Notes: a model not told the origin generated them from the letters alone. Positions 6,001 to 54,000 are shown, numbered from the stretch's first letter. The stretch: DNA of 64,000 nucleotides from an uncultured bacterium (GCA_964434115.1 CAYSSX010000007.1:82734-146733); one strand, 5' to 3'. Program-made: numbers and translations.

Positions 6001-9000
6001 CATGGAATGGCGTGACCGTGAAGAGAACTTTGACAATGACTCGGCGCCGAAAGGCTGGACGCCGGAGGCTGGTAAATGGGCGGTCCGCGGGGAGATGCTC
6101 GAGGCGGAACGCCAGGGTGTGCGTTCTTACGGCAACACCGGCATCTACACGGACGCCGACTTTGAGCTGTCGGTGGATATGGCCATGGAACAGCTGACAG
6201 AAGTCCGTGACAGCGATCTGAACAAAACCTGGGAATCGTCGGTGCTTTTCAACGCCACGGACCGCTTCAACCACTATGCTTTCCGCATTCTCCGTAACGG
6301 CGATAATACCACCATCGGTCTATTCAAGATGGTGGACGGCCGTGAGTACCGCCTCGCGGAAACAAAGCCGTTCCCGTTTGAGTTCGTGGCCGATGATTTC
6401 TACCGCCTTAAGATCACCTCCAAGGACTCCGAGATCACGGTATCTCTTAACGACAATGTTGTCTTTGAAGTCACGGATCATCTCTACAGCGAAGGGTATG
6501 TCGCGTTTTCAAACCTTCGCGCCGACGCCCAATTTGACAATTTGAAAGTTCGTTACGAAGTGGCGACCGGAGAAATCGCCGCAGTGGATATCAACGGCCG
6601 GAAATTCCTCATTAACGAAATCAGCCTGACCCAGGGCGATCAGTTTGACCTGAATGCCGACGGGCGCTTTGACCGAAAAGATGCCGATGCGCTTCAGAAG
6701 GCCATGTCGGACAATGGAATGCTTCCTAATCAGCAGCAGTTCTGCTCCCCTGGCATGGAAGGTTGTGAGGGCTATGAATCAGGCGGTTATCCCGGCATGG
6801 GTGGTTCCATGGGTGCCGGCGGTTATAACTTCGGAGGCAGCGGTGGTGAAGGCTTTAATTACGGCGGTATCGGCGGCGTGAACTCTCCGGGCAACCAGCC
6901 GAAATCCAAGATTGACGTCAACGGAGACGGGGTCGGCGATGCCAAGGATCTTGAATTGATGCAGAAAATTCTCGATGCTGACCGGCGCGGCGAGATTGTT
7001 CAGCAGAAGGAGTATCAGAAGGCGGATGTCAACGGCGACAATGTTGTCAATGATCTTGACTGGAAAGCGATCGAAGAATCCATGAGCAAGGTTGCCAACG
7101 GCGACGTGAACAACGACGGCAATGTCGACTTTAAGGATACTGACGCGATCCGCGGAGTGGTGCGTAAGAACCAGATCGGTGTTACGACCAATGAAACACG
7201 CGCCGCCGACCTTGACCATAACGGTCTCATTGACGGAAACGATGTCGTTGCATTGAAAAACACCCAAAACATTCTGTATCAGATGGACCTGAACTTTGAC
7301 GGAAAGGTGGAATTGAGCAAGGAACTGCAGGCTTTTGATAAGGCCCAAGAGTTCTATGATCTTGGCTCCAAGCTGGATCCTCTTCAGATGATGAAGGCTG
7401 ATATCAACCAGGACGGCATGGTTGATCAGGCCGACCGGGCGATTTATCAGGACTTGACCCGTCAATGGGACGACAACGGTACGACCCGCAACCTCTATGA
7501 TCTCAACAACGACGGAAAGGTCGACTCACAGGATCTTTCCCGCCTTGATATGATCAAGTTTGGACAGGATTTGAAATTGACCGACGATGAAAAACTCGTC
7601 GGGGACGTGAACCGGGACGGCAGCATCAATGGCCGTGACCGCGACCTCTATGACAGCATCTATCAAAACAACCTGGTCCTTGACCTCAATGGCGATAATG
7701 CGGTTAACGGTCTTGACCGCGATGTCCTCAACGCCCGTATGACGGCCATGCAGAACCAGGGAATCCCGAACCCCGGTGAACTGGAGCGCGCGGATATCAA
7801 CCGTTCGACAAGCAGCTCCGACCCGCGCGACCGCATTACATCGGCCGATGCCACGATGCTTTCATCCCTTTACAACAACGTTTTCCGCAACGGTGCCGGC
7901 GATTTACGCGACCTTGACGGAAATGGAACGCTGGATTTGAAAGACCTTGTCCGCCAGCGTGAGATTCAGGAATTTGAAACGTACGGACTTGATGACGCTA
8001 AAGTCAACCAGACGCTTTGGGACGTCAATAAGGACGGAAAGATTGATGATCAGGACCTTATCGACCTGCGCGCCTCAATGCAGAATTACGTACAACATGA
8101 TATTAACGCGGACGGCAAGGTGGATCAGTCGGATATTTCCCTCATGGATCGTATGATCGACCATCAGCGTCTGGATTACACCGTTAAGCCGGAAAACCTG
8201 GAAACGGCGGATATCAATAAAAATGGTTCTTTTGATCTTGACGATGTGCAAGCGTTTGAAAACAACCTGCCTTCCTATCAGGATGTCAACGGCGACGGCA
8301 AGGTTAATAAATTTGATGCCCTTGACGCCACGAATGCGATGAATATTCAGAACTCAGGGTATATCGCGCGGATGGAAAATGGATCCGCGGTCTATGAAAA
8401 GGTCACCGCGGATGTTCTGCACCGCGCGGACTTCAACCAGGATGGTTCGTTTGAATCTCTTGATGTGGCCCTGCATTCCAACGCCATCAAGAACAATTCG
8501 GACGTGACCGGCGACAATGTTGTCGATGCTAACGATTGGCTGCGCCTGAAGCAGTATTCCAGCTGGGGCGTGGGTGCCGCGCAGGTCCGGCGCGCGGACG
8601 TCAACGGCGACGGCGTGATCACGGACAAAGACAGAACAGACCTTCTTTCCGGAATCAGCGGGCATGACCGCGCGGATGTGAACGGGGACGGAAAAGTGGA
8701 CGCCAGCGACCTGCAGAGCCTGCGTACGATGGTCGAAGCCGTAAAACTCAAAGTCACGGCCCAGGATATTTTTGCGGCCGACATTCAGAAAGACTTCATT
8801 ATCGACACGCTGGACCTCAACAAACTTCTGAAAGCCATCAATGAACTGCCGCTTTACGACATTGACCAGAACAACCTCGTTAACCATCTCGATCTGGATA
8901 CACTTTTCCGGGTTTGGGGAACAAGCCCGATTGATCTTCTGACCCAGCAGCTGGGACTGATCCAGGGCCTGCCGGCTCAAAGTGAAGCGAGCGTGGATTA

Positions 9001-12000
9001 TGACGAGGTCCGCGCCATGTATTATTCGGCGCTGGATGTTCAGGATAAAGCTGAAGACTACAAGGAGCTGGCCGAAAAAATCGCGGCCCTTGTATTGAGC
9101 CCGAGCGAAGCTCTTCAACTGACCGATTCGGCGGCGCTTTTGATGGGGCAGATCAATTCGGTCATCCTGGCCCTCTTCCACCGCATGAATGAGCTGGATG
9201 CCTTGAGAGGCCAGCCGCTCAGCCTTGAGGCGCAGATTATTGCCGCCTTGAAGCTTTTGGATGAAACCGTCAGCCGTGCTGCGGAAGCCGTGAATGCCGA
9301 GGATCTGGCCAATCTCGCCAAAGTCGGAGACGGTCTCCATGCCAGGATCGCAGGCCTTGCCGCAGGACATCCTGAATGGCAGGTGAAGTATGTTGACCGC
9401 GCGCTTGAAAGCAAAACAGCTCTTGAAAACCTTCGTGACACCGCTTCGTACGCCGAAGGCAAAGCTAAAACCGCCACAGCTCAGGCTGAAAAGAACGATA
9501 CCTTTGCGAATTGGCTAAAAACCCAAGCGGAAATTTCTTCGGATTCACCGGAACTCCTCAAGGTTCTTGCCGCCCTGGCGGAAACGCTTCACGATTCGGT
9601 TCTTGCGGATCTCCGTACCGTGGCTGTTGAAGCTGCCGGCCGCCCAGAGAACCAGGTTCTTCAGGATTCTCTTAAGCGTCTTGAAGATTCCGGCAAGCTC
9701 ACTCAGGAAGTTTTGGCAGCGATTCAGAGTTCGGCACGGCAATCCCAGAACATGAGGGATAATGGTGCCGCCTCCGTGAGCCAGGGAGAATTGGCTCTTG
9801 CCGGAATCCGCCATCTCGCCGGCGAGGGGATGGCCATGGGGCTTCTGGCTTCGCTGGATATTTTCCTGAGCCGTCTCAGTGTTGTGTACCACGAGCGGCC
9901 AATCAACCGTGACGAACTGCTGAAGGCCTTCCGGGCTTTCCGCGGCGGGGACTCGATCGCTGATATTGCGAAGTCTGTTCTTGAACTCCCGGATGAACTG
10001 GACCTTGACCTGGCGCAAAAAATGGCCGCGATTGCCAACGATACATCTCTTGGCAAAATTGATTGGGTACGGCGCTATCAGGCATGGATGGAAGGCCTTG
10101 GCTCAACGGCGTCGGATTTCTATGAAAATGCTTTTGACAAGTATGACTCTTCAATTGATCTTACGGCTTACTTTGACGCCGTGTCGGCGTCCGCTGTGGC
10201 GCGCCTTGAAGAGCTGCAGAAGCTCCGGGATGGCCTTGACCTTTTAATTTTCCGCAATCCGGACAACCTCGAGCTGGCCGCCCAGCAGGCCTCTCTTCAG
10301 GACCAAATCCGCAAGAGCGCGGATGCTGTTACCGCGATTGTGGAAATGCAGAAAACGCTGAAACCCGAATTAACTTATATGAGTGCCGTTAAGGCCGACC
10401 GGGAAATGGCGTCCCAGCTTGTCAGAAAAACCGATGGTATGTTGCTCGCTTTTGATGGGATCCGTACGAAAATCACAGGCTATGAAAGTATTGAAGACAT
10501 CCGTCTTGAAATGGAATGGGCGGAATCGCTTGCCGCGGCCCACGAAAAGGAGCTGAAAAACCTTGAAGCCTTGAAGCAGAAGTATCCTTTTGATGCCTCG
10601 ATCAAGGCCTTGTCGGATGAGGCCTCCGCGAAACGTGCCCAGCGCGTCAGCTTGCTGGCGGACCTTGAAAAGATGGCTGGCGATGCGGAAACCTTCCACG
10701 AAACCCTGGCTTTCTTCAAGGGGGTTCCGGAGTATACCCAAGCGCTCAAGGCCTTTGCAGAAGGTATCACGGATACGAAAGCCCGGGCGGATGTCGTAGA
10801 CGTCATACAGGGATGGGCGGCTCTCCTCAGCCGGAAAGCGCAGGAAGCGCAAGCGCTGATTAACCTGCATCCGCAAATGAAATTTTTGGCTTCCCAGACC
10901 GGCGTGCCAGCTTCCCGGATGAGCGAAGTGTTGAGCGCTTTCGATCAGGTCCGCTCTGAACTTGCGGTTGACCAGATGAAGGCCAGCGCCGGTGAAAGCC
11001 TTGTCGACGACCTGCGCAATGATCTGCAAAGCAGCGCCCAGATTTCGAAGATGTCCGAAGGGACAACCGATCCGGCTCTCCTTCGTTTCTATCACCGTCT
11101 GTTGACGGCTTCCAAGGTGGAAGCGGATTCACTCCGCACCAAGCTGGCTGCCTTCGCGGGCCAGCCTGACGTTGACCAGGCCAAGCTGAACGTTAACCTG
11201 GCGATCATCGATGATCTTAAAGCCCGCTTTGCGGCACTTGTGCAGGCCCTGGAAACCCGGGCCTCAGCCCTGTCCGTCAATCTTGGGGCAGAAGACGACG
11301 CTGCGGCGCTCGCGGGTGTTTACCGCTCCGCGCTCGCGCAGGCCGCTCTTGTGAACAGCGATGCGAACTCCGAAATTCCGGCTGTGGAAGGGGTCCTCGC
11401 GTTGATTGATCAAATTGAAGCTGTTAACACGGATGCGGGTCTTATCAATGATCTTGACCAGGCGCGCCGGCAGACGATCCGCGTGCTCGGGGAAAAGACC
11501 GAAGGCGCCTGGATTGTGGATCATTCTCTTTCGCTTGTGACGGCAGGACGCATGGCCAACAGCCTGCTAGGCTCCATTGAGGACGCTTCGGTCCTGAGCG
11601 CCCTTGAAAGTTACGCTTCCACTTTCTCTGGCAAAATGTCTGCGAATGAGGCGATCCTCAGCGATCTATCGAAGGCTCATCCGGAAGCTGTTTATTATCC
11701 GGCGCACCTTGAATCGCTGCGCAGCATGATGAATGAACTCAACAGCAGCGTTGAAATGGTCCGCCAGAAGCGCCTTTATTTGGAATCTCACGCCGAAGTT
11801 AACGTGGAAGAAAACCTGCGTAAGGCCTCTCATGATGCCGCCAGCGCTTTGGATGCGCTCACGGGCCTCCAGCAGCCGGCGCCTGAAGTTGTCTATGCGT
11901 GGAAAGAATATGCCGCCGTTCTCTCTGCTTGGTTTGAGGCTGAGAAGAAAAAGATCATCACAGGCACGGATGAAACCAAGGAACAGTATCAGCCCGTGCT

Positions 12001-15000
12001 TGAGGCGTATCAGGCGAATCTGACCGAAACCATGAATAACCTCCAGAGCCGCGTGAATGAAACCGAAACTGCGATTGCCGCTGCGGCGGCTCTGGGCTCC
12101 AAAGTCCGCGAAAGCGAGCGCCATTTTGCCCTCGTGAGCGCGATGGAAACTCCTCGCGCGGATTACCAGGGCGCGCTTGTGACACTCGCTCGTGACAGCC
12201 TGAACCGCCTTGACCAGCTTGGCGCTTATGAACGTATGCCCGCGCTGATCGCCGAGTTTGAGACGCTTCGCGCAGGCGCATCTATTTCGTCTCTGCAGGA
12301 GAACGGGGGAGAGTCCCTGAAGAAACTCAATCAGGGATTGAACACACTTCTCAACCGGCTTGAAAATGCGGCTCTGGAAGCGGCTTCCCCTGACGAAATG
12401 AAAAACCGCGCTGCTTTCTTTGAAGCTTCCCGCGGACTTGTCAGTGTATGGAATGTCGACGCCTCCCGCGCCGGCGCGGCCGAGCTGCTTCCGGAACTGA
12501 ATGCCGCCGCAAGCCGTATCAACACGCAGAAACAATTGAACGCCGCACAAGCCGGATCCGTGGCGGAAGGTGAAACCTGGTTTGCAGAAAAAGAGCAGGT
12601 CCTTGGGGAATTGGCGGCCTCCATGGACGCTCTTGAAACAGAACTACGCGCCGAGCAGGATGGCAATGCCGTCCGCGCCGGGGTCCAGACTTACGCGACC
12701 CTTTTTGATCAGCTTGCGGGACTTGTTAATGAAGCGATGAATAAATTGCTTGAAGGGGCGCGCAGCGAATCCATGGAGAAATCACTCGACCGGTTTGTCG
12801 TCTCTTATCATAAATACGGCCTCGCGCTTTCCGAAATGAACCGCCTCGCGGACCTCCGTGAGGGAGTGTCTGACAGCGGTACCGCGATGCTGGCGGAGAT
12901 CCGCAGCGCTGAAGCTAAGCTCCTTGCCGTAAGCGCGGATCTTGCCGCGCTGAATGACGCCTCGCTTGCAAGGGCGCTGCGCACCGGAGCGGAAAGTTTC
13001 CTGAATGAAGCCTCTGAAACGGTGGATGTCCTCGGAGAGCTGCGCACGGTCAACGGCGGAACGCCGGAAACCGAGCAGGCTTACCGCGATGCCAAAGCCG
13101 CCTTTGAAAGGGTCGCAAGCGCTTTTGACGCAGCGTCCAGAAAGGCCCTGCAAATTGAGTTCGCCTCCGGTGACCGCGTGCAGCCGGGCCGCGAGATGGA
13201 TAAACTTTATGAACAGATCCGCGAACTTCGCAACCGCATCTTTGAAGTCTCTTCCGGTTCTGAAGCGGCAATGAATCTTGAGATGCTCAAACAGCTAAAG
13301 ATTGATTTCTCCGCTTATATGGCGGCTTTGACCACGGCGGCGGAATCCCTGCCGTCCGACAAAGCCCTTGCTGAGCTCAAGACCCGCTATCAATCGCGCA
13401 GCGATGAACTTGAACTGGCGGTTACGGAATCTTCTGAAAAAGCTGCCAAGATCCAGCTGACGAGTAGCGTGGCCCGGATGAACAATCTCGGTGAGCTGTC
13501 TAAGACGTTTTTGGCCAACGCCCAGGGCGCGCTGGAAGACGGCCCCCGTCAGGCAGCACTCGACAGCATTCACTCACTTCGTGATGACGCGGAAGCCGCG
13601 CTGATGCAGGCCCGTCTCGCAGCGTCGGGGTATGAAGAGCAGCAGGATGTCAAAGCCTGGCTCAGTAATATTGGGGAAAAATTCAGCCAGATCCTCAGCG
13701 ATGTTAAAAAGGCCGACCTGTCCGCGGTGACGGGACGCCTTGACACAGGCGGAAACAAAGCGCTGGCGGATCTTTTGAACGACAATAAAGCGTTCCTCGG
13801 CAACCTGTCCGTCTTGAGCAGTGCGGAGAGCAATACGGCGAAGACGGAAGCCTTGGCGGAAATCGGTTCTGAGAACGCCGAGCTTTCTACGCAGGTGATT
13901 GAATCCATGCGCGCTTATCTGAAGAGCGGCAAATCCGGAATTACAGATATCGCCGAAATGGAGCGTGGTGAAGGCCTCTTTGATCTGATTCTGGCCAACC
14001 GTAAAATCCTTGAAGACCGCGCCCGCCAGACGGATGCGGATCAGACGGACGGCGTTTCTCTTAAAGACGAAATTCTGCATGACCGTGACATCCTGGAATA
14101 TGCCTTGAGCCTTGTTCAGCGGGTGATTGATGGTACCAGCGGCGGCGGTATGGGCGGTTATGGCGGTATGGGCGGTTACGGCGGCATGGGCGGCTACGGC
14201 GGCGAAGAGGGCGGCGAGTACCTTGGAAATCTGACCACCACGGATGCCCAGAGTATTCTGCAGTTCGCGGCGTATCTGAAAAACCGCGCGCAAGACCGGC
14301 TTATGGAATTAAACAACCTTCCGGATGCGAGTTCTCAAATCCGTTCCGATGCGGATCAGGCTGTGAACGCGATGATTCAGGCAGTCCAGGAGAAATTGAC
14401 CTTGGCCCAGCAGGCCTTCTGGATGGGGCAGCCGAGAAAAACTTATGAAGAAGCCAAAGACTTGAGCCGTGTCGTCCGGATTGAAGGGCGTGATTTTGAG
14501 AAAGCCTACGAAGAGCTTCCGGTCCAGACCATGAGGGACTTCGACATCCGGAATGATTTCTTCGCTATGGTGAAAGACCGGGTGTTTGATCTCTATTATG
14601 AAAACCAGAAGGCTTACCGTGAAGACCGCGCCCAGCAGGGCCTGCAGGACCACTTGACCGCGGCCTATGACGCGCTGACGAAGATTAATGATGCGTCGGC
14701 ATCTTTCGTCCGCATTGATGCCGCGAAAGAACTCGAAATAGCGTCTGCCGAATCCCTGAAAACGCAGACACGCGTCCAGACCCTTTTAGAGAAAGCTGCG
14801 GCCGCCAGTTACGGAGAACAATCCAAGCGGCTTGCCGAAGAGGCTAAACAGACGCAGGACCGATTTGAAAATCAGGTGGCCGGCCTCGGGTACCGTCTTG
14901 CTGACCAGAAAGCGGTGACGGCTGAAAACCAGATCGCGCTTGATCAGATTCAAAGCCGTATCCGTGCCGGAAACCGCACGGCCGAAGACGGCCTTGTCTC

Positions 15001-18000
15001 GGCCTATAAAGCGGAAGCTTGGGAAACCAAGGGCGCCTCGGCCGTTCTTCAAGCACAGGAACTTTTGGATTCAGCCAAACAGCGTAACGGCCTGCTTGCA
15101 GGCGTGAAGAGCTTTGACAGCACGGTCAACGTTGTGCGGGAAATCGAAATGGCGCAGCTTGCGGCCGCGAGCCTGGAGACACGTCTCCAGGAACTGAAAA
15201 ACCAGTATCCGGGAACCCCTGAGTATGCGTCCAATTTGGCCCGCCTGCAGGGAGTGTCTTCCGATATCGAACAGGAATTCCAGAAGGCTCTTGAAGTACT
15301 CGGTAAGAAGTATGAATCCCTGGACCGTAACGAAATCGCTTCCGCAGATCCCTATGTGCTCGCGGGCGTCCTGAAACGGACATCCTTGGACACGGAAGTT
15401 GAGACTGCCGGCTCCAAGCTGGGAATTCTGGCGGGTTTCCTTCAAGAAGGACAGGATATCCTCGGAGGTCTGCGTAACGAAGTTCTTGAAGAAAACCGTG
15501 CCGGTCTGCAGGCCGTGAGGACCAACGCCAGACTTGAAGAAATCCTTGCTTCGGCAGGCGATAATGCCCGTATGAGTGAGTTTCTTGCCCTCGAACTTCT
15601 CCGTGCGACTGAGCCTTCGGCGGACAATGGTGCCGGTTATAAGAGCGTGGCCCAGGGTATTTATCAGCACATCCTGGATAACACCGAACAGATCAACGGC
15701 GAGACGAGTTCAAGTCCAATGAAGCCGGTGCTTGCTGATTCCGTCAGCTACATGAATCAGATTGAACCGCTCATTACAGCGCTCCGTCAGGCTTCCTTGA
15801 GGGACCCGAAGAACGGCGAATTACTTCAGAATGTCATTGCCGCGGCCAGCCTCCTGGAACAGGCGAAGGCTGAAATTAAGATCCAGGACAAGAAAATCCG
15901 TGACAAGGAAGCCCTTGAAACCCAGGGGGCCAGTCTCTACAACCGGATCAATGATTTCAAAACCAAGTCCCAGAAGGCCAAAGATTTTGCCGATGAGTTC
16001 CAGATGGCGGCCAATGTTAAGTCCCAATGGGACCGTATTGCCGATTGGTACACTCAGGCCGATACGATCAACCAGGAACTGGCCCAGATGGCGGCCCTTG
16101 GAAACCCGCAGGTTCAGGCTAATGCGGCGCTCGGCCAAGCCGCCTTCAATGACATTCTGAACATGAAAAACGAAATGGAAACCCTTTACAGCAACCTTCT
16201 GGACGGTGAGACCCGTTCAAAAGGTTATCTTGAAGCCCTTAAAAGCGCCTATACCAATCTTCAAGGTCTGCAGCGATCCATTTTCTCGGCTTCCAGTGCT
16301 TCCCAGGCCCTTGAGATGATGAAAGACGTCCAGACCGCGGTCGATGTGATTACCGGGAAATGGGACCAAATGAACATTATTCACAGCACTTTCCCGAAGG
16401 ACTCTATTGTGACTAGTCTTTTGGTCGAAGCCAGCCGCTTGAAGGGGATTGCGCTGGATATTCGCAAGAACGTTCAGGACGGAATCGATAAGGTTAAGTC
16501 GGTTGAGACCGCGATTGCAGAAGATTATCTTCAGGTCGCATCGCTTCTGAATATTATTCGCGCCGGCCACAACCAGTCTTCCGTAGAGAAAATGTATTCG
16601 GCCGTGGCCGCCATCCTCGCTAATGCCCAGAACCTCTTCACTTCGATGAAGACGAAGGTCCAGGCGATGGCCAAGGATGCCGCTGATTACCTCTTCAACC
16701 TGGTGATGCGTAACTATGTCGCGAGGGGAAATCTGGCGATCCGTCAGGCCAGTGAGCTCCTGGCCGAAATAGCCTCGCGCGCGAAAATGACCTCTTTCTA
16801 CGGAAGCATGAACCCATACCTTCAGCGTCGCGCGGACATCAACCTGGATGACCGGGTCAACGCCAAGGATGTTTTCGATCTCAGCATGGCCGCGAAGTTC
16901 ATGATCGACATCAATAATGACGGCAAGAGAGACATGCTTGACAAAGCCATTTGGCAGCACCTGCTTCCGGTTGTTGCCACGATGAACCTCGTGGGTGGAA
17001 ACGTTGCCATGAAGGGCGATGTCAACGCTGACGGCCTTCTCACGGATCGTGATGTGGGACTCTACCGTGAATATATGAAAAACCTTGTGGATGTGGATGG
17101 CAACGGTGTCGTGAATGCGGCCGACGTTGCGGCGATTAACGGTTTTGTTTTGGGCATTCCGAGGAGCTTCGGGACCCCCGATACCGTGACGGTCTACCGG
17201 TATTACGGAGAAGACGAACGTTCAGCCGCGGAATTTATCGGCGAGCGCGACCGGCTTTATGCTAATGACATTTTTGACCTTATTGACAATCTGAAAGACG
17301 AGGTTATTGAAGTGCTTGATCCGGCGTCCTTCCCGCATCAGCTCGGAATGACCGCGATCCGCCTTACGGGCCTCGAACGGGAAGTCCTTGACTCCGATAA
17401 TCTTGAAGCGACCCGGGCCATGTGGGAACGCGCCCAGCTTCTTTATAAAGATGCCCTGGATGGGCGCGATGTACTGACTGTGACCAATGTGCCGATTCCC
17501 GGAATCACGGTTGGGGCTGACGGGACGGATGATTCACCCGCGGACATTCTTGCCCTTCTTATTGATTGGCGCCGCCGGGTTGCGAATCAAGAGGGGATTG
17601 TCGATGTTCAGAAAGCTTCCCAGCTGGCGGCTTCAAACCGGGTGATTCAAGTTTCCCAGGAACTGACCACTCTTCTTAACGAAGTCGACAGCGGGCTCCG
17701 CAATCCCAGTGACCCCTTGATTGCGATCAAGCAGTTGGAATTGGCCGCGGCCCAGACCAATTACGGAAATCAGACCAATATTCTGAATCGCGAGGTTGCG
17801 ATTCTTCGCAGCTTTAAACGCGATGTGATCGAACTTGAGCAGCTCTTTGCCACGGCCCAGGAAGACCTCATGGCCGTCAAGAACTCGATGAGGCGCATCA
17901 ATGAACACATGGAAGCTCTTGCTATGAAAAACCCCGGCGGTGCCTTTGCTTCCCTGATCCGCTACCTTGGTGATGCAGCTTGGGAAGGGAAGCAGGATAC

Positions 18001-21000
18001 TACGGTAACGCCTGTCAACCCGCTGCTTTCAGCTGACCTCACAGCCGCCCAGCAGTTTGAATGGAAACTGGCTTACGACATGGGCAATACACTCATGGAT
18101 CTTTACGGCGGTGCTGCGGGGCGCAACAATGTATGGAATGCTGGTGCTGCCGGAGCGCCTGTTGCCGGCACAGACGATTTTAACCCTCTGCAGGGGATCG
18201 ATACGGCCAATGGCAACCTGCAGGAATTCCGCAATAACATTTTGCGGATTTGGGATCAAGCGTTGGGCACCGGGGAGTTTGTGAATTACCTGGGTGCGCT
18301 TGATCTGACGTCTCTCGACGAAACCTCACCCAGCTTCTTGACAGACCTTGCCCAAATGCTCAAGGACATCCGTTTTGAATACAATAAATCTCTCAAAGGC
18401 GGCGGAGAGTACAGAAGTCTTTCCGATTTCCTGAACGGAACTCCCAAGTTCTTCTCGGAAGCCCGGATGATTATTGAAGGCGTCAAGATTTATTACCTCA
18501 AAATCAAACAGCGCTTCACGCTCCTGAATGAAACCAAGAAAGCGTTCAGCACAAGACAGGGCGATTTCTCCGCGCTGGCGGTCAAGGAACTCGGCCTTGT
18601 GATCGGCGTGGATATTATTGACCGCAACGGCGACGGTTTCTTGACGTTTAATGAACTGAATCAGTCATGGACTGAGGCGTCGGCCGAACTTCAGGAATTT
18701 GAGAAAGCGGGAACTGGACTCTTGGCCCTTATTCAGGATCCTAACAAGGGCCTTGAGCAGATGCTGAATAAAATGGAACTCTGGTACGGCCAGATGAAGC
18801 CGCAGGACCTGATGGAATATCTGCGTAAAGGCTTTGTCCAGCTCGAAGAAAGAATCCGCAAGGCGCCTTCGGCTGCGGCGGCTCTTGGTGAATACCAGCA
18901 GGCGACCCTGCGGCTCGTCGAGCTTTATGAGCTTGGTCATAAAGATGGAGCTGGAAATGCTAACAATGCTCTGGATGGATTCGGGAACCTGATTAGTGAT
19001 GAGGCCGTGCGCAAGGCTCTTTCCATGGACGCTTTCCTTCAGGCTGACGACATTATTGCGGATTCTTTTGCCAACATCACCAGCGCCAGCCAGCTTGAAA
19101 ACCTTTTGATCAACGCGAACATCACGAACGGCGGCGATCCAACGGACAAATATGCGGATCAAATGTTTGCGTTTACGGCGGAACCCAGCACGGTGACCAC
19201 GGAAGCCGCCCCTGGCAATTGTGCGGCAGCACCGAATGACCCGACCAAGTGCCGCAAGTTTGATGTGCCGGTCCGTCTGCGCTGGGACTTCAAAGATCCG
19301 GGCGGCGATCCCAATTTCCTTGGCGTGGTCTACGGCGTCATTGCAGGCGACCAGACCAAAAAGCCGCCGGTGCTGGACGGCTCCTATACGTTCGTTCATT
19401 TATACGATGTCATCCGCAACCCCGCGGACGGCACTGAGTCCCTGCAGGAAGTTTTTGCCGCAGGCGCCGTGCCGACGCAATTTAATTCTGTTTTTGATCC
19501 GGTCACCCATGACCAGAGAGTCACGCTTACAAGCCGCGGCCTGAAGAAAACCTTCCTCATCCAGGAGGGCCTGGTCGGACAAGTGCTCCAGGTCAATGAA
19601 GACGCGAAGCTTTATGCGAGCAAAGCGCAGACCTACTATGATCAGTTTATGGACGGCGGCACCAATGGTGTCGGCGTTCCGGCCCGAGGCAGCTACCGCG
19701 ACTTCTATCAAAACAACGACCTCGTCCGGGCCTATGAAAACAAAATGACCACGGAAAGACTTCTGTATGAGCAGGTGAAGATGGAAGAAGTTGTGGTGGA
19801 TACAGCGATGAAGGCGCGCGCCGTGGCGGTGAAGAACGAAATGTCTTTGATCATGAATGGTCCCGGCGGAGCGGCGCTTCTGGATGACGGAACGCTGGCC
19901 CTGGCCGGCATTATGTCGATTGACCTGAGTGTGATCAACACCCGGCTTGATGCCGCGGCGGTTGCGCAATCGGCCCTGAAGAACCGCATGGATGAAATCA
20001 AGCGCCTGCAGAGCTATGCGACGGACGGTTCCAAGCAGGAGATTGAAGTGGCTTTTGATGCGGCGACGATATTCATGAGCCAGATGGATGAAGTGATCAA
20101 CAACCTTTGGTTCTCACAGCAATTCAAAATTCTTCAGGCTGAAGCGCAGACTGTGATGGACAACGGAGTCCGCGTGATTCTGAACCAGGCAACCGTGACG
20201 CTTCAGAGTTCCAATCTCGGGACCATGTCAGAAGCTGCAGCGGTCGCGCTTTATAATCAGCTCGTGACCCTCCGCGGCCAGATGGAAGACAAACTTCTGA
20301 AGTACGAAAGACTTTTTGCCCAGGCCCCCGTGCCTGTCAAAGAATGGCTGAAGACCCTTTATCAGACTGCGAACCTGCGCTCTGAATTTGACGCATTGCT
20401 CGGCCCTGTCAGTGAAGCCATCGGTCTGAAACAGGGATTGCAGAAAAAAGCCGAACTTCAGGCCGGGACCCTCACGCAGGAACAGATGAACACCGCGATG
20501 CGTGCCCGGATCGATGCGTTGACCCAGCTTTATAAGTCACGTGTTCAGGATCTCCAGGCCGCCGAAGCCAATGCCTTCACACAGGTGCAGGTCAGTGACC
20601 TTCTTTTTAACGCGAACGGGTTTATTGCCTCTTACCTTAACGCCACTGCCGCGGTCAGCGAAATGATGCAGGCTTTGCAGTGGTCGGATGATGGCGCGTT
20701 CCAGAATGACGTGCGTCTTGCCATGACGGCCCTGTCTTATTACCGGGATCTTTTGGGCCGTGATATTCAACCGCTGAACCGCAAGCTTGCAGGCCTTGAA
20801 GCCAAGAACGCGGTCGCTTTGCCGAACACGGCGCTTGTCCAGGCCCGCAAAGCCAATGCTGATGCGATCATGAATGCCCTACCGCCCTTGCCAGACTTGA
20901 ATGACCTGGCTTCCGTGGCGGCTGTCTCCGTCGTCCTCCGTGCGGGTATTACCCAGATGTACAACGAGCTTGCAGCTGCGGAGCGCATTGCCCGTGTGAC

Positions 21001-24000
21001 CCAGGCCCTCCAGGAAGCGATGGGTTCCGAAGGCTTCACGTATATCTTTGATCACCTTAAGGAACAGCAGATCCTGATCCTTGAAATTACGCGAGGCATT
21101 AAGCTCGCGTCCGAGCGTCTGGCGACGCTGGAAAAGACCAGCTTCCAATTCTCTCTTAACGGGCTTCTTGCCAGCTGGCAAGTGGCACAGGCGGAAACGG
21201 AAAGAGCGCGCAAAGACGTGAGTAACAACCCGGTTCTTCACTGGTATGACATGACTTACCAGCATGCCAAAGATATGTTGGAAAAAACGAAGGATGTGAA
21301 GCAGTCCGGAGAGCTTGCGGTCAACGAACTCGAAGCGGCTTTAAAAGACCTTAAAGGCATTTCCCTTGAGTTTTTCAACATGGAGAAAATGGCCAAGGAT
21401 CAAAGCGAGGCGATCAAAGTCAATGCCGGTATTCTGAATAGCTTCCTGTCGGATCTGGGCTCCTTCAAGCTTTTCGATAAGATGCTGGTGGATTCCGAAA
21501 ACAAAACGCTTTCTTATAATGACCTCAAGTCTTCCACGGAAATATTCATGAAAGAATTGAACCGTCTCGTGGGCGGACTCCAGGGCGGAGGCAAGGGGAT
21601 TTCGGACTTTTACCGCGACCTCCGCGCCCTAGTCCAGTCCTATGATGATAATCAAGAGCTTCAGCGCCTGCTGGCAAGTATCGAACCGACCGCGCTTGAC
21701 GCTATGGCGATTCAAAAGGTTCTCGGGGACCTCGGCGCTATCATGACTTTCTACGCCCAGTCACTCCAGTATCGGGACAATGCCATGGCGGCGGTTGAAG
21801 CCCAGAAATCCATGGTTACGCTTTTCGAATCCGAGACTGATCCGGGCGCGCGCGCCGCGATCTTTGAACTTTACCGCGAGGCGGACAACAAACGCCAGGA
21901 AGCGATGAACCAGTCCATGGCCGCGGCACGCCAAATCCTCGCGCAGATCGGCCACCTTCGTGAATACATCACGAATTCCGATCCCTTTATTCAGAAAAAT
22001 TATCCGACGGTCATTTCCTTTGACAAACAGATGATCGTGGATCTTGTTGAAAAAATTATCGGCAGCGCGAGCCTTCTGACGCTTGCCAACGGCACTGGGG
22101 TGGAATCGCCTCTCGGTTCGATTGCGGAAGCCGAACACCGCGCCGATCAATTGACGCGGCTTCGTGCGGACGGGGGCCTTGCCAAGGATCTTACGCCGCA
22201 AGTTTCCGAAAACGGCGAAGAAGACGGCTTCTCATTTAAATTCACTGACAGCGTTGGGGTGAAAGATCTCCGTAATAATACGGTTTACCTCTGGAAGCCG
22301 GGGACCGGAACCGAAAACTGGTACGATCTTTCTGCCGGCAGCATTCAGGATGCGGCGGTCGGAATTCCCGCCGGCGGCGGCACGGATCCGCTGAACACGC
22401 CGGCCAACTTTGAACCGGGTAAATCCTATGTGATCATCCGCAACATCAAGCACCCGACAGACTTCGTGGTGCCTGAACCGCCTGCGGGCCCTCCGGTCCA
22501 TGAAAACAATGAATTCCTGTACCGCCTTGTGACCTTCCTCCGGGAACCGAAAGATGACCAGCCGGGCGAAATCGTGACCTATGTTCAGGTGCTGGAACGC
22601 CGCATTCTGGGAACGGCCCCGAATGATTATGTGGCATGGAACTGGGTGACTTTCGGCGGCGAGAAAAAATCCACCATTCCAAGCTACAAGCCCATGGTCG
22701 TCGTGAACTCGAACTTTGAACCCTGGACAGGCCGGGTTGTCCTGGAAAGCCGCGATGAGACCGGCGCGCCGGTGGTTTCCGTGGACGGTAAATCCTATAA
22801 AATCACGGGAAGTTCCACAGCGAACGGTGTCCGCACTTACACGGTCCAGATCCCGCCGAGCAGCACGGTTCCTCCCGCAAGCCTTGGAACCTTGACTCTG
22901 GATGTGACCAGCGCCCCGTTTGACGGACAGTTCACCGGGGATGTATCAACCCTTTACAGCGCCAAGCTTCGTCAGGACCAGATTGCAAAAGCACTCTTTG
23001 GTTTGGGGACCGCAACGTATGACGTGGATCCGACAAGCATACTCGGATTGAGAGGCGATACCTTCCGCCGCTCCGGCATGGTGGAAAATGCCGAGTCCAT
23101 TTCCTTCGTTCTGGATACCAACAATCCGAATTACGCCAACAAGGAAGTGGAAATTCAGGAAGGCCAGCCTGCGGCGGGCGGAGCGGCTGCCGTGCCCGAA
23201 AAATTCCGCATGCAGGGTGACGCGAATTGGACATCGGTCGGCGCGGATGCGGTCAAAACCGCTTATGGTTACATGATCAAGCAGACGATGGATCTGAAAG
23301 TCGTGGATGGACAGCTGAAGGTAGACGACTCATCGGATGATCAAATTGAAGGCAAGGTCGTGACCGAATATAAAGAAGGCGCCGTTGTGACGCGCATTTT
23401 TGTCCCGGGACGCGGCAACTTTGATGTCGCCGATGGCGTTCCTTTTGACGCTGCCAAACATCAGGCCGTTAAGATTGGTCCGAACAAGTATGTGATTTAC
23501 TACCGTATTGATCTGGGTGAGAGACTTGCCGACAAAGACGGCGATGGATTCATTTCCATGGATGTGGACCCTGACCTGATGTTCTGGCAGGACGGTCAGC
23601 TCGTGGACATTAAAAAGACCGATCTTGCAAACGGCGGAAAAGATAAATGGTATCACTTCGGCATTCAGGTGAAACCCGATGCCGATATCCTGAGCGCGGA
23701 CCGCGAGAAATACGCATTCACAGCGACCCGTGACCAGCTGGATGTTTCAAAACTTTTCTATCAGGGTGTCATCGATGCCCAGGATCCCCGGCTCTTCCAC
23801 AAGCAGATCGGCAAGTCCGGAGCGCCGCTCACGGCAAGCGATTCGATTGCGGTCGGTGATACGCTTGAAGTCCGGGACTTTGATTTTGAAGGCAGCTGGA
23901 GCCAGCCCGCGAAGTATAAAGTGATGAGTGCCGTGGCTATGCAGGTCCAGCTCGCCGGAGGGATCTGGGTCAAGCTCCGCAAAGGCCCCTCAGGCTGGGT

Positions 24001-48000: not shown

Positions 48001-51000
48001 GTTCACCTCCAGCTCGAACTATGATTACCTGGCGGTTGAGGCGGATCAAGGGCTTAAGGAAATCGGTCTTCTTTCCGAGGCCCGTGACGGCGGCTTCGCC
48101 TCACGTGCTCGGGCTTACCAGAGCAAGTCGATTTTCCTTTCGGAAACCCTGACTGAAATCAACGCCCTTGAAGAGCGTGTCAAAGCCCACGTCACGCTTT
48201 CCGCCGACGGCCGTGTGCTTAACGGAGGCCTGCACTCCAGCGAAATCTGGGCCGGTATTGAAGAACAGAAAAAAGCCCGCCTTCGTGAATTGGAACGTGT
48301 GGGCGCGATCACGGCAGAAGACATTGAAAAGGTCGAAGGCCTTGTGGCCCTGACCGAAGATGAAGCCAAGCTTCTCAGCCTTCTGAATCAGGCGCAGGTT
48401 GCGGTTTCTCTTGTCGACAACCGCGACAACCAGGTGAGAAAAGTTTTCCAGAGCGGCCTTGCGATTTTGGAACAGGTCTTTGCCGGCAAGACAGGCGGCG
48501 CGTTGATCAGTGAAACCGTACGTTCCCTGCGTGAAAACGGCCTTATTGATGAACACACCCGCCAGGTCCGTCAGGAACTCCAGCGTGACAAGTACGGTGT
48601 TGCGCATTTGGTGGAAATCACAGAAATCACCAACAGCGTAAGCAATGCCGCAGGTGAACGGGCTGTTACCGGTTTTTGGGTGAACACAGTGGGTGAGCCG
48701 CTCAAACTGCAGGATTGGGACAGCTTCACGATTGATAAACCGTATGAAACCGTGCGTCTGCACAAAGATATTTTTGAACAGATCTTTGATTCTATTAAAG
48801 AAACACTGCAGCCAGTTTGGGACTATGTCCTGAAGCCTGTGGTGGATTACTTGACATATGTTAAAGATTTTTGGGTTGAGCAATGGAACAACTATGTGGT
48901 TCCTGCCGCGAACTGGGTTTGGAACAACGCGATTGCCCCTTGGGCCGTGCCCCTCTGGAATAATGTCGTAAAGCCTGCAGTAGAAACGGTTGGAGGATGG
49001 ATTAAAGAGGGGGCGGCTTGGGTTGGTAAGCAGATTGTTGCGGGTCTTGAAATCGCACGTGATTTTCTGCGGCCTATTGTGAGCGAAGTTGGCAGCTGGA
49101 TTAACTGGGCGGGACAGCAAGTCGTGGCTGCGTGGAATTGGTTTGCGTCGACAGAATTAGCCAACTGGTTGGTGAATGGTGAAGGTATTCTCCACACTCT
49201 GGCTTGGGGAGCCATTATTGCCGGATCTTTGTTGATTGCGCCTTCATGGTTTATTTACGCAGCCGTAGGAGCGGGTGTCCTTGCAGCTGTTGCCAATTCT
49301 GATTTCGAAGCAGGCTTTGTTTCGTTGATGAATGGCATGATCAACTTTACGAATAACGCCGTGAGAGTTGTTAATAACACCGTCGATTTTGTCAATAAAA
49401 TCATCAATAGCAAGAGCCCGGTTGAGGTGCTTAGTCACCTTGGGCATGCCATTAAGGATATCGGCGATTGGATTACCGCGAATATTGTTAGGCCCATTCA
49501 GAGCGCTCTTGTTCATGCCGCTGCAGCTATTCTCCGCTGGGCAGAGGCGAATCCCGAAATGGCGATAGCCGTTGCTATTGGCGTGGGCATCGCCTTGATT
49601 GCGCTTGCGATTGCGGGAGCGATCTTTTTTGCTCCCTTGCTTTTCGCGGCAGCCGGCACGCTCTCCTTTGGGGCGTCCATCCTGGCGACCGTTCTGACCG
49701 TATCCCTTTTGACCATGACGCTCGCCGGAATCATCCTTTTAGTGGGTGGAATTGCCGCGTATAACCAGGGTTCTCTTGCCGATAAAAAAGCCGTGATCAT
49801 GGCCACTTACACAGCCGCGATTCTGCTTGTGGGAAATATTTTGGGCGTGGGAGAACATGATTACAAACGGATCATGGGTAAAAATAATATTGTCACCCAG
49901 AACATCGCACTCATGAATAACCTGGCTCAGAACAGCTTTTATCTTTCCCTGGCTCTGAATCTGGCACTGATTGGCGGTTTTGTCGGAGCTGCCTTTGCCC
50001 TTGGCGGCGTAGGTTTTCTTCTTTTGATTCCTGCACTTCTGATCGGTGCAGCCACGCTTGCAGGCGCTAATTTCTTTACCATGACAGGCCTTAAGTTTAG
50101 TGGCGTTTTGGGTCTTGCTGCGGATGTAATTCTATTTATCGCCAGCATGAAACTTTCCGGCTGGTCAACCGGTGTTTCCAAGAAGTTCGCGAGCATGGTC
50201 CCGGAAGTGACCAGCACGTTCCGGGGTATGCTGTCTGCTATCGCGGGCCGAATCCTGGGGACGGTTAAAGGATTGCTTGGCTTTAAAGGAAACTGGATTT
50301 TTGTCAAAGCCATGGTGGCGCAGACGCTTTCAACCGGTTCATTTGCCCTTTCTTTGAGACTTTGGATGAACATGATGTTCAGCGGCGCCCAGGCCACGAT
50401 TTCAAGTCTTGGTACCTTGATGAATTTGATTTCGGCGGGTTCGGGCAATGGACTGGTCAACTATGATATTCGTCAGAATTTGTTTCAGATGGCCAACGCT
50501 CTTAAACAGTACGCAAATCCGTCGAATAAAGAGGCGTCTGCGTTCGCGAAATTTTTCGCCAATCTTTTGGGCGGTTTTATCAGTACCGCCCTCCATTTGG
50601 GCAATATCAGCGGGGAGTCGTCACTTTTGACCTTCCTTCATACCATGCCCCTTGGGCCCGCGTTGTTCTTGCTGGGTCCCATGGGTTTGTATTTGGGACA
50701 GAAATTCGGGCTCAGTTTCCTGAACGCTATCCCGGACATCAGCCAGAAGGCGATCCAGATGGGAAGTCAGAATTTCCTGGCTAACTTCATCGGCCAGGGA
50801 TTGAAGGGGTTCCTTGACGAAGTGTTTGTGGAAGGTATTGGCGGCGATGTGACGGAGTTGCTGCTTATTACGATCGGAGTTGACAAGGATGCCGCACAAA
50901 CTCTTGCCGAGCAATTCGCAGAATTCCTTTCTATGGGCGGTGAAGGCGGCGCGATTAGCACCAGTGAAAACCTGGCCGCGCTCCGCGATTTTATGGGCAC

Positions 51001-54000
51001 GGCGGATTATCAGCAGTTGATTACCAATATGGGCAGTGCAGACCTTGACGCTGTGGCAGGTCTCTTTAAGGATGCGAAAGATTTCCAGGCCTTTGTCACC
51101 CAAACCCTGGGACAGGCCGGCGGCCTTGAAGTTTTGAAGAAAACAGCGGATGTCGCTGCTACCCTCCGGGCTGTCAAGGGCCTGGATGGTAACGAAGTTC
51201 TGGAAACACTGGGTGAGAATCTTAAACTGACCAAACTCTCGGATGTTTACAAGGATGGCGGCACTGACGGACTGACGAAATTTGTGTCCCAGATTTCCAA
51301 CACCAATGTGTTTATGGCTGCGGCCAAGCTTGCGGGAACACAAACAGCGACTCAGGCAGCCAATATCCCGTCGCAATTCCATACGGAACACTTTTTGAAT
51401 AATCTTCGGGACACTTTGGCATCGACCCAGGCTACCCGCGCGTCACCCGCGATTCCGCAGGCCATGCCGTCATCTCTTCCGCTTTCCCCGGGAACCGCCT
51501 CAATTCTTGGAAATACACTCGTGAATCGTTTTGGACTTATCGGAGGCTCCATCCTGGAAGGAATGTGGGAAGAAAGCGCGTTCCGCGGCGTGCTTGCTAT
51601 TGGCGCGACCCTGGCGGCTTCGTTCCTGACAGGCGGTCTGGCCTTAGGGCTTGTGCTTGGCGGCATGGTGGTGGCTCAGGCGCTTGTGTTCGCGGCGCTT
51701 CATAATAACGACTACCACGGCACATTGTCTCTGGGGAACTTCATGGGACTCTTTGCTTTTGGCGTTGTGGCCGGCGGCCTGGTCACCGCGATTACGCTTG
51801 CCACGGGCGGGACTTTCCTGGGTATTGCGGGTGCTATCGGTGCGGCCGCCACTTTCCACACCGCCTTTAATATTATTCAGCGGTTCAACAATTCCACCGG
51901 CGTGTCCAGCTTCTTCTCAGCTTTTCTCAATCAGGCCGGTTTTGTCTTCTCACCGTTGATTCTGCCTCTGCTTTCGCTGTCAGGCACCATGCTCACCGCG
52001 CTTGCCGGGGCCGCGGGTTTTGTGACATCGCTTTTGGGCGGCCTGGGCTTCCTGGTGGGATTGACGGGCATCTTCAATATGCTGCAGGGACAGCTGGTGA
52101 ACCTGCCGCAGGTGGCGCCTGACCTGGTCCGTTTGGATAATTTGAACTTCCTTCTCGGCCAGTATTCTCTGCCTCAGGTTGTAAGCCTGTTCCGCATGCA
52201 GGGCTTTGATGCTGAAACACTCCGCGTGGCGCTGGTTCAGTACACGCTGAGTACCAATTTCAGCAAGTTTGATTTCGGCCAGCTTGCCATTGCCTTGATT
52301 CAAGGCTATCAGGGCGTTCCAAATTTTGATCTTGCTGTGCTGGTTCAGAACTTCCTCGCGGTTCCGCAAATTCAGGTAGATGCGGCCAATTTTACATCGC
52401 TCATTCACGGCCTGCTGCAAAGCGGCGTGAACATTGGGGAAATCACGCAGCTGATCGCGTTGAGCTCTTTCCTGCAGAACAGCAATTTCAGCTCTTTACA
52501 GGTCATTACGGCGCTTCTGACGCTCCCGAATATCGGACACGACCAGATTGTGGACATCCTGGGCGCCTTAGTCCAGCTGCCGGGAATTAACGACACCAAC
52601 ATTAATGACATTATCAGCAATATTCGTGCGGTGCAGGGACTTGACCTTGATTTGTCGGAACTCGCGGGTATCCTGGTGCAGTTTAATAAATTCTCGATCC
52701 CGAACCTGGTGCAGGTTTTCGCCGGCCTTGTGGATTTCGCGAATATTAAAGTTGAGGACCTTCAGAATCTTGTCCTTGTCTTTTCATCGGTGGTGGACCT
52801 TTCGGACCTCCAGAACTTGACGGATTTTGTCACAGTGTTTGCAGGCAATGTGACAGACATTGCCCAGCTCCAGAAGCTGATCAGCAGCTTCACGAACCTG
52901 AACGTTCCGATTGTGAATGTGGTTCAGGTCTTCCTCGGGCTTCCCAATTTGCAGGGCCTGAATTTTGTGGACCTTCTTACGGTATTTACCACGATCCCGA
53001 ACTTGAGCAATACGGATCTCGTTGATATTTTCAACGCCTTTTCCACACTGGGAACTTTCCAGGGACTTACCGCCGTCGGTATTTTGAATGCCCTGATGGC
53101 TGGCAACTTTGCGAATGTTCCAGGCTTTACGGGCGCGAATTTACTTCAGATTCTGGACCTTTTCCGTGACCTGAATTCCTTTAAAGATCTGAAGGCGCTG
53201 GATATTGCGAACATCTTCAAGGCGATTCCTTCCCTGACAAGCCAGGACATCGTGAATCTTATGAATCTTTTGACAGGGTTTACCACGATCAACGATATCG
53301 TGGGGCTCGCCAATGCTCTTGTGGGTCTGGAGCAGCTGACGCAGGATGATGTGATCCGCCTCGCCAATCTTTTGATTATCAACATGCCGCAGGCCGCGGC
53401 CCTCGATGCTGCAGGACTTGCCGCGCTCGCGGATATCTTTAAAGCAAAAGGCCTTGATGATCTGCACATGATCCAGATCGCTCAGGTCTTTGCCGGCATT
53501 CCGAATCTTGACTCCACGAAAGTCCTGGCGCTTCTGTCCGTGTTTATGTCTATACCGTCCCTGCAGACGGAAGCGAATCTGCTTCAGCTGGCGCAGATTT
53601 TTGCCGGCGTCCCGGGCGTTGGCCTTGTGGATATCGCGACCGTGTTCCTTAACCTGCCCAATCTTTCCGAAGCGGCGGTTCTGGGTTTTGCCGGCATTTT
53701 CGCAGGAATCATGAATGCGAATGTCAATGTGAGCGTTCTGGAAATCCTGGGCGTGCTGAACCTCTTCTCGAGTGTGCCCAACATCAACATGGTCAATCTT
53801 GCGAGCGTGTTTGCCGGAGCTTTCACCGGCAATGAAAGCTCGCTGCTCATGCTGGCTCAGTTCTTTGCGGGCAAAATCAATGCGGGCGACCTTCAGGCCC
53901 TGACCCAGCTGCTTAAAGTCTTCACCGATATCCTGAGCCTGAACAACATGACGCAGGATGGGGCTGTGGACCGTCTGATCACAAGCTTCCTCGGCAATTC

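Follow-up and report, generated by a model that had tools for sequence, protein, structure and literature searches.

A single giant gene fills the 64,000-nucleotide stretch of DNA analysed here (the window), which comes from an uncultured bacterium, and within that gene nucleotides (nt) 8900-22150 encode a long region rich in helix-favouring residues. We lean, with only modest conviction, towards the following reading: the protein is a membrane-anchored giant of the Dockerin type, of the kind found in Omnitrophota, and this region is a helix-rich part, unique in sequence, of its extracytoplasmic N-terminal arm, where it would act as a helical-bundle spacer or scaffold. Its core is made of amphipathic segments of ~35-108 residues (median ~60), bounded mainly by Pro and marked by a seam of large residues every ~3.42 positions, and the region as a whole is non-repetitive and keeps its position in three relatives. 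Few known proteins are as large as the giants of Omnitrophota, for most of whose length neither a structure nor a function has been assigned. If the region is a rigid helical spacer, it would offer a physical picture of how dockerin and lectin modules are presented, with a reach close to the diameter of the cell, and the repeat-built rods of Ebh and Embp would gain an orphan counterpart that lacks repeats. The 3.42 lattice, whose period falls where few coiled coils do, and the near-zero rate of insertions and deletions (indels) at ~45% identity are testable handles on these ideas. If the region holds ordinary all-alpha domains only, the finding comes down to an improved domain map for another giant of the dockerin type.

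The reading frame that opens at nt 2 of the + strand contains no stop codon anywhere in the window (nt 2-64000; 21,333 codons, open at both ends). Residue n of the encoded protein occupies nt 3n-1 to 3n+1, so that nt 8900-22150 correspond, in frame, to amino acids (aa) 2967-7383. A first-pass annotation had described this interval as a continuous alpha-helical stalk, and the helix-favouring composition from which it started is borne out. In blocks of 200 residues, Ala accounts for 11-17% and Leu for 10-14% of the interval, and A+E+L+Q+K+R together make up 44-56% of most blocks (down to 34-36% in the interrupted ones), where the flanks have 28-38%. The Chou-Fasman helix-minus-strand score tells the same story, at +0.10 to +0.175 over aa 3001-5400 and about 0 in the flanks, and the shifts in composition coincide with both edges of the interval as it had been drawn. 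Cys is indeed nearly absent, with two residues in the interval (C6407 and C6417), though this scarcity holds for the whole protein (40 of 21,333 residues). The claim of very few Gly and Pro was overstated: the two together make up 8.1% of the interval, which contains 94 Pro, and 7.2% of aa 2967-5600, compared with 1.1% of tropomyosin.

Secondary structure was predicted with AlphaFold2 for two tiles, both run from a single sequence and both of low confidence, so that only the secondary structure is usable. The tile at aa 2967-4166 came out as 81% helix in 44 helices, with 0% strand (mean predicted local distance difference test score, pLDDT, 42.8). The tile at aa 5400-6599 came out as 58% helix, varying from 11 to 82% per 100 residues (mean pLDDT 36.5), and contains ten non-helical runs of at least 15 residues each (5665-5682, 5709-5756, 5765-5804, 5815-5845, 5995-6012, 6036-6061, 6184-6215, 6389-6463, 6486-6524 and 6551-6565). 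What stands out is a clean helical core at aa 2967-5600, 2.6 thousand residues (kaa) long, inside a segmented helix-rich region.

What, then, is the geometry of this core? From aa 2967 to 5580 (nt 8900-16741), hydrophobicity varies with a sharp period of ~3.42-3.43 residues (z 14.7), and the value is stable whether one uses the Kyte-Doolittle scale, the Eisenberg scale, a binary score for large hydrophobic residues or the charged residues. The large hydrophobics carry it, and Ala does not. It falls at 3.39-3.44 in every sub-block and in the homologues that we call L003 and P0001 (described below), including one at 25% identity, and it is missing from those other parts of the window that favour helix. 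Positive autocorrelation occurs at lags of 7, 10, 14, 17, 21, 27, 34, 41, 55, 68, 72, 82, 99, 106 and 137 residues, all of them whole-number multiples of 3.42. Measured as in-phase minus anti-phase signal, the amplitude is 0.040 at 2-9 turns, 0.037 at 10-19, 0.026 at 20-29 and 0.003 at 30-39, phase coherence being lost past ~100 residues; by the same measure tropomyosin stays at 0.16 throughout and serum albumin, also compared, at about 0. When the pieces between successive Pro or Gly residues were permuted, the signal was destroyed (z 3.7-4.7), and when only Pro delimited the pieces (mean 58 residues), it was mostly kept, which means that the phase continues through Gly and that it is mainly Pro that bounds the units. 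Asp or Glu follows within three residues of Pro in 59% of cases, as opposed to 38% in shuffled sequence, a pattern that looks like helix N-caps. In all, 28 phase-coherent amphipathic segments (median 59.5 residues, longest 108) cover 70% of the core, as compared with 28% in shuffles. Coiled-coil periodicities are known to span 3.33 to ~3.9, with values under 3.5 rare (Hartmann et al. 2016, PMC4786415), and helices with the value seen here (3.42, or about 17/5, 24/7 or 41/12) would supercoil left-handed more strongly than heptads do. There may also be a contribution from the DNA itself, as 3.42 residues equal 10.3 nt, near the DNA helical repeat.

The first-pass annotation had gone on to suggest a coiled coil or a spectrin-like rod, and neither, taken as a continuous heptad coil or as a repeat array, survives two of the checks that it had proposed, a Fourier analysis of heptad periodicity and a search for internal duplication. 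With tropomyosin as positive control, Fourier power at 3.5 residues rises from 3.4 to 24, linearly with window length, whereas in the helical region it stays at 1.3-2.2. By a crude heptad score, 11% of 28-residue windows reach the level met by 90% of tropomyosin windows; the longest run in a single heptad register is 51 residues, and autocorrelation is flat at the heptad lags of 28, 35 and 42. No internal repeats were found in the helical region by BLAST, the best internal-repeat score among 58 tile hidden Markov models (HMMs) built from three homologues was 5 bits, and the region has no long-period spectral peak of note. Pfam at E <=0.01 finds nothing in aa 2901-7500 except a sub-threshold EF-hand (PF00435, FIVAR and GA are not matched), and sequence searches of the helical region against NCBIfam and the PDB give nothing meaningful beyond weak matches to Ca-binding modules. 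A Foldseek search with the low-confidence AlphaFold2 model of aa 2967-4166 had a best E of 0.49; spectrin repeats and alpha-actinin are among its best, insignificant matches, the best spectrin match standing at E 1.2 and probability 0.41. The flat power at 3.5, the few heptad windows and the lack of repeats and families lead us to reject both a continuous canonical coiled coil and a repeat array.

More specific candidates fell in the same way. For a canonical heptad coiled coil the peak is at 3.42-3.43 rather than 3.5, the register is too short, and Gly and Pro are too frequent. A spectrin repeat array would need PF00435 matches and tandem units of ~106 residues, and an Ebh/Embp array of FIVAR-GA bundles would need Pfam matches and repeats of 125/126 residues; none of these is present. 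Some signs do suggest a TPR-like 34-residue solenoid, namely the positive lags at 34, 68 and 137 and a weak Pro/Gly peak at 33 residues (z 4.4), but the lags are multiples of 3.42, there is no TPR match in Pfam, and the segments are too long. Amphipathic 11-mer repeats of the apolipoprotein or LEA kind should have a period of 3.67, as opposed to the 3.42 observed, and a pore-forming domain was set aside because the region has no hydrophobic segment.

Three relatives of this protein were recovered. With aa 2967-4166 as query, HMMER was run exhaustively against 1.84 billion representatives and found one protein, P0001 (MBI3306332.1), a partial sequence of 5,283 residues encoded in a metagenome-assembled genome of Candidatus Omnitrophota (locus L002, JACPXL010000010.1). 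Its module order is identical, and its identity is 37% overall and ~25% in the helical part. Two further loci were recovered from genomes and metagenomes with patterns derived from alignments, single-sequence patterns having found none: L001 (CAYRBY010000086.1, from an uncultured bacterium), equivalent to aa 1756-4667 at 62.8% identity, and L003 (Ga0209573_1000118, a 212-kb metagenome contig), equivalent to aa 1-7506 at 59.5% identity. A word-indexed protein search with aa 2967-4166 and with aa 700-1900 returned zero matches and missed even the known relative P0001, and so that index seems to be blind to these proteins. The homologous sequence begins upstream of the window start, by at least 366 residues in L003 and about 1,150 in P0001. 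As for the public record of P0001, the annotated TTG start of MBI3306332.1 (nt 1572 of L002) is probably not the true N-terminus (L002 nt 1-1660): a 524-codon open reading frame (ORF) in another frame, running from the start of the contig, encodes similar beta-rich sequence, which suggests a frameshift or an assembly error.

Stop-free homologous ORFs fill L001, L002 and L003. Against L001, the proportion of nonsynonymous differences (pN) rises from 0.14 upstream of the helical part to 0.30 within it, and the synonymous proportion (pS) is saturated at ~0.73; since the frame is stop-free over the whole window and pN is well under pS, an artefactual ORF can be rejected, and the helical region is both coding and under purifying selection. 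(A listing of ORFs of at least 150 residues gave only ORFs on the opposite strand of the giant one, which are its by-products.) Against L003, the core is the fastest-diverging part of aa 1-7506, with 38-56% identity as compared with 62-84% in the flanks, and the beta-rich modules of aa 1-2966 are far better conserved in both P0001 and L003, with up to 84-86% identity in 200-residue blocks. Yet between aa 2281 and 4716, a span that includes ~1,750 helical residues, L003 has zero indels; the core as a whole has five indel events, or 0.35 per 100 substitutions, where the neighbouring parts have 1.83 and 1.61. High divergence with next to no indels implies a core that is folded and constrained in length. 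The residues tell us something similar: W, F, M, L, R, P and G are the best conserved (55-78% for W, F, M, L, P and G) and T, H, S, K and N the least (20-33%), and conserved large hydrophobics, fixed lengths and a variable surface together argue for a folded structure rather than a disordered linker.

The region is not continuous, as had been claimed, but is interrupted by a hinge, a dockerin-like module, an EF-hand-like loop and a non-helical module of ~175 residues. From its start, helical core A (aa 2967-4704; nt 8900..14113, + strand, as are all the features below) consists of non-repetitive amphipathic helices, as judged from its composition, a period of 3.415 and the AlphaFold2 tile of 81% helix and low pLDDT. 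It leads into a hinge rich in Gly, Tyr and Met, read directly from the sequence GGMGGYGGMGGYGGMGGYGG (aa 4705-4748; nt 14114..14245), where two of the five core indel events relative to L003 fall. Similar low-complexity linkers with GGY/GGM motifs recur in the protein, at aa 1700-1724, 2254-2301 and 4705-4748 (nt 5099-5173, 6761-6904 and 14114-14245), with a weaker one near aa 590-605, and several of the indels between the window and L003 lie at or near them. Helical core B (aa 4749-5600; nt 14246..16801) has the strongest and most coherent 3.42-residue periodicity, for example at aa 5009-5116 and 5296-5472, with spectrogram power of 8-12 in 120-residue windows and a period of 3.41-3.435; AlphaFold2 makes aa 5400-5500 helix at pLDDT 56-78.

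After core B comes a dockerin-like or EF-hand-like Ca-binding module (aa ~5604-5720; nt 16811..17161) that matches the N-terminal dockerin arrays by BLAST at E 1e-6 to 1e-4 and has weak PDB matches to a GH9 dockerin and a sarcoplasmic Ca-binding protein; here the identity to L003 climbs to 67%. A mixed segment of helix and coil, with AlphaFold2 coil runs and 58-68% identity to L003, occupies aa 5721-6388 (nt 17162..19165) and includes the EF-hand-like loop DRNGDGFLTFNEL near aa 6201-6221 (Pfam EF-hand_1, E 0.0016, under the cut-off). The non-helical module, rich in Pro and Gly, lies at aa 6389-6565 (nt 19166..19696): its G+P content is 14%, its helix-minus-strand score is -0.02, AlphaFold2 makes it coil with two short strands, and it contains the only Cys pair of the interval. 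Last comes helical block C (aa 6566-7383; nt 19697..22150), recognised by its composition, a period of 3.435-3.45 with shorter coherence and 55-76% identity to L003, structure prediction covering its first ~35 residues only.

How might such a chain work as a spacer? We imagine the long amphipathic helices packed antiparallel, in one elongated bundle of ~5-15 nm after another, and the coherence of the segments over ~60 residues, a feature of the sequence, would favour bundles that are elongated. Short fixed turns would join one bundle to the next, and the Gly-rich hinge, the Ca-binding modules and the one non-helical module would punctuate the series. The result could be a semi-rigid spacer or scaffold that holds the dockerin and lectin adhesion modules off from the remaining ~9,000 extracytoplasmic residues, with mechanics like those of the helical-bundle rods of Ebh/Embp, spectrin or talin. 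Arranged in series, the bundles could contribute perhaps 100-200 nm. With packing like that of Embp (~0.046-0.056 nm per residue), the ~3,700 helical residues would extend over roughly 170-200 nm; were the bundles packed side by side, the span would be 10-20 nm. A stand-off role is plausible by analogy with such rods, and the region would then be one spacer among ~16,000 extracytoplasmic residues and not a stalk rooted in the membrane.

Several points count against this reading. The spacer function is something that we infer entirely, and divergence at strictly kept length would fit a fast-evolving interaction surface as well. The AlphaFold2 models (pLDDT 42.8 and 36.5; predicted template-modelling score, pTM, 0.25-0.28) are such that three-dimensional shape cannot be read from them; the helix breaks that they contain (median 20 residues) conflict with coherent segments of ~60 residues, though we regard the breaks of so low-confidence a model as unreliable. 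The amplitude of the periodicity is only about one-quarter of that of tropomyosin. The assignment of the window to Omnitrophota comes from one homologue at 25-37% identity, and both the N- and the C-terminus of the giant protein fall outside the window.

Other readings deserve a hearing. One continuous coiled coil or spectrin-like rod of ~4,400 residues, hundreds of nanometres long and rooted near the membrane, would account for a helix-favouring composition across 13 kb, for the lack of predicted strands in aa 2967-4166, for a supercoil-like hydrophobic periodicity coherent to ~100 residues and even for the positive autocorrelation at lag 106, the length of a spectrin repeat. We nevertheless consider it very unlikely: lag 106 merely corresponds to 31 periods of 3.42, power at 3.5 fails to grow with window length in the way seen for tropomyosin and lags 28, 35 and 42 are flat, heptad-like windows make up 11% with no register held beyond 51 residues, Gly and Pro amount to 7-8% with 94 Pro in the interval, coherence is gone past ~100 residues, neither internal repeats nor spectrin or any other Pfam family appear, the non-helical interruptions are clear, and ~9,000 residues precede the first transmembrane segment. 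Hardly credible at all, in our view, is a low-complexity or disordered linker, rich in Ala, Glu and Ser, that merely scores as helical. The very low AlphaFold2 confidence, the lack of family matches and the high content of Ala, Ser and Glu are what one would expect of it, but such linkers change length freely, and the core has 0.35 indels per 100 substitutions, with a stretch of ~1,750 helical residues free of them; moreover, the large hydrophobic and aromatic residues are conserved best, a strong amphipathic periodicity that is independent of scale persists at 25% identity, and repeats and compositional runs are absent apart from the short Gly hinge.

A possibility that we take seriously but doubt is that the core is a functional all-alpha machine, either a fast-evolving surface that recognises prey or host or a switchable or membrane-active helical apparatus, for which the long helical hairpins of colicin Ia and the alpha-helical shell of Tc toxins offer a comparison. 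The fastest divergence in the first 7,500 residues, at fixed length, suits a diversifying surface on a rigid frame; a part in attaching to prey and attacking cell walls has been proposed for the protein class (bioRxiv 10.1101/2023.11.21.568195), and the helical repeats of Embp themselves bind ligand (PMC7587433). However, aa 1-16,400 contain no hydrophobic hairpin or transmembrane-like segment, there are no sequence or structure matches to a toxin, enzyme or binding family, and with synonymous sites saturated, positive selection is beyond the reach of this comparison. A further, improbable reading would make the core a previously undescribed fibrous helical assembly, in which ~60-residue helices, in a chain without repeats, share one strongly left-handed, non-heptad lattice (~3.42 residues, about 24/7 or 41/12) and form a molecular ruler, frozen in length and fast at its surface, with a reach of 100-200 nm from an ultra-small Omnitrophota cell to its prey or host.

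The helix-bundle spacer that we favour has to be placed within the rest of the protein. That Ca-binding and lectin modules lie N-terminal to the region, as the first-pass annotation had held, is confirmed by Pfam: upstream are 11 dockerin type I stretches (PF00404 Dockerin_1, E 1.5e-64) and a ConA-like lectin/3-keto-disaccharide hydrolase domain (PF06439, formerly DUF1080; E 8.8e-8, over the gathering score) at aa 2010-2184 (nt 6029..6553), together with beta-rich modules. The last dockerin type I array, seen both with Pfam Dockerin_1 and as self-BLAST repeats at aa 2297-2964, occupies aa ~2297-2966 (nt 6890..8899) and directly abuts the start of the helical region. From aa 2901 onwards, nothing in the window scores over a Pfam cut-off.

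A Kyte-Doolittle hydropathy scan (19-residue windows at >=1.8; a simple scan and no trained predictor) finds ~10 transmembrane-like segments at aa 16,404-17,352 (nt 49211..52057), likely the membrane anchor, and none in aa 1-16,400; one borderline match outside the cluster lies at aa 20,844. The proposed topology therefore holds in its order of adhesion modules, helical region and membrane, but the helical region is not attached to the membrane, because the first transmembrane segment comes only after a further ~9,000 residues of different sequence. The 40 Cys form 20 pairs spaced C-x(2-10)-C between aa 2248 and 15774 (nt 6743-47323), such as 2248/2255, 6407/6417, 8419/8422 and 15763/15774. 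All 40 precede the transmembrane cluster, with none within or past it and none after aa 15,774. Pairs of this kind would fit short disulfide loops, and, since they all lie ahead of the cluster, they suggest that the N-terminal ~16 kaa are extracytoplasmic.

Further helix-favouring blocks lie downstream, at aa 9001-9400, 10001-11000 and 14400-15400, with periods of 3.53, weak or unclear, and 3.76, respectively, and with such different periods the protein seems to hold several distinct helical regions. Past the transmembrane cluster, aa ~17,400-19,000 (nt ~52200-57000) are low in charge and rich in Leu, Phe, Asn and Ala (D+E 7.6% and K+R 4.5% over aa 16,381-19,000, a span that takes in the cluster), with internal repeats (aa 17477-17668 versus 17616-17854 and aa 17835-17985 versus 18072-18202) and no Pfam match. 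From there, aa ~19,000-21,333 (nt ~57000-64000) form a nearly uncharged tail rich in Val, Thr, Ala and Gly (V 16-23%, T 13-18%), which includes the borderline hydropathy match at aa 20,844, has a beta-strand-like look (e.g., TVNAAGVVTLTKAGSVTVVTGTVNVQVG), diverged internal repeats and no Pfam match over the cut-off, and continues past the window's end.

The Dockerin-type giant proteins of Candidatus Omnitrophota carry dockerin/EF-hand repeats and DUF1080, have an N-terminal majority free of transmembrane segments and a C-terminal membrane anchor, and have been proposed to attach to prey (West-Roberts et al. 2023, bioRxiv 10.1101/2023.11.21.568195); the corresponding class in Nielsen & Lui 2026 (bioRxiv 10.64898/2026.06.07.730766) is the "dockerin-bearing" class 3. 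The window protein resembles them in its dockerin type I/EF-hand repeats and PF06439 (DUF1080), in being free of transmembrane segments to aa 16,400 with a cluster towards the C-terminus, and in lacking Pfam annotation over most of its length. The only homologue with a taxonomy (P0001/L002, 37% identity) is from Omnitrophota. Pfam finds no TSP3, discoidin, GNAT, C39 or SecA-like domain within the window, past both ends of which the gene continues, and the TSP3, SecA-like and C39 domains of Dockerin-type giants are reported to be divergent. Where the window protein differs is in the helical region itself: both papers describe beta-helix tubules and CBM35/dockerin ladders, and in neither is there any mention of a coiled coil, a stalk or a helical region thousands of residues long.

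By analogy, the closest functional counterpart is the rod of Ebh (Staphylococcus aureus) and Embp (Staphylococcus epidermidis), in which FIVAR-GA bundles of ~7 nm per 125-residue repeat, in 40-52 recognisable repeats of 125/126 residues, add up to 320 nm (PMC7587433; Tanaka et al. 2008, cited therein). Like that rod, the window region is a multi-kiloresidue, mostly alpha-helical, extracellular part of a bacterial surface protein of the ~1-MDa class anchored on its C-terminal side; in Ebh/Embp, serial helical bundles form an elongated, fairly rigid rod that presents binding surfaces. Unlike it, the window region has no detectable repeats and no FIVAR or GA match, and its segments look longer (~60 residues), with a period of 3.42. 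The rods of spectrin, alpha-actinin, plakins and talin would share the principle, which we infer here, of consecutive antiparallel helical bundles, and the talin rod is likewise non-repetitive in sequence. They are eukaryotic and cytoskeletal, whereas the window protein is bacterial and extracytoplasmic; it also differs from the spectrin-type rods in having no PF00435 match, no 106-residue unit and no structural match better than E 0.49. With coiled coils the region has in common amphipathic helices and a regular seam, whose period, being under 3.63, implies a left-handed supercoil, and 3.42 lies within the 3.33-3.9 range. It departs from tropomyosin in its period (3.42 versus 3.5), in an amplitude of ~1/4, in coherence that extends to ~100 residues and in its frequent Pro and Gly. 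Set beside all of these systems, the helix-rich region is a real and somewhat unusual feature within a known class of giant genes.

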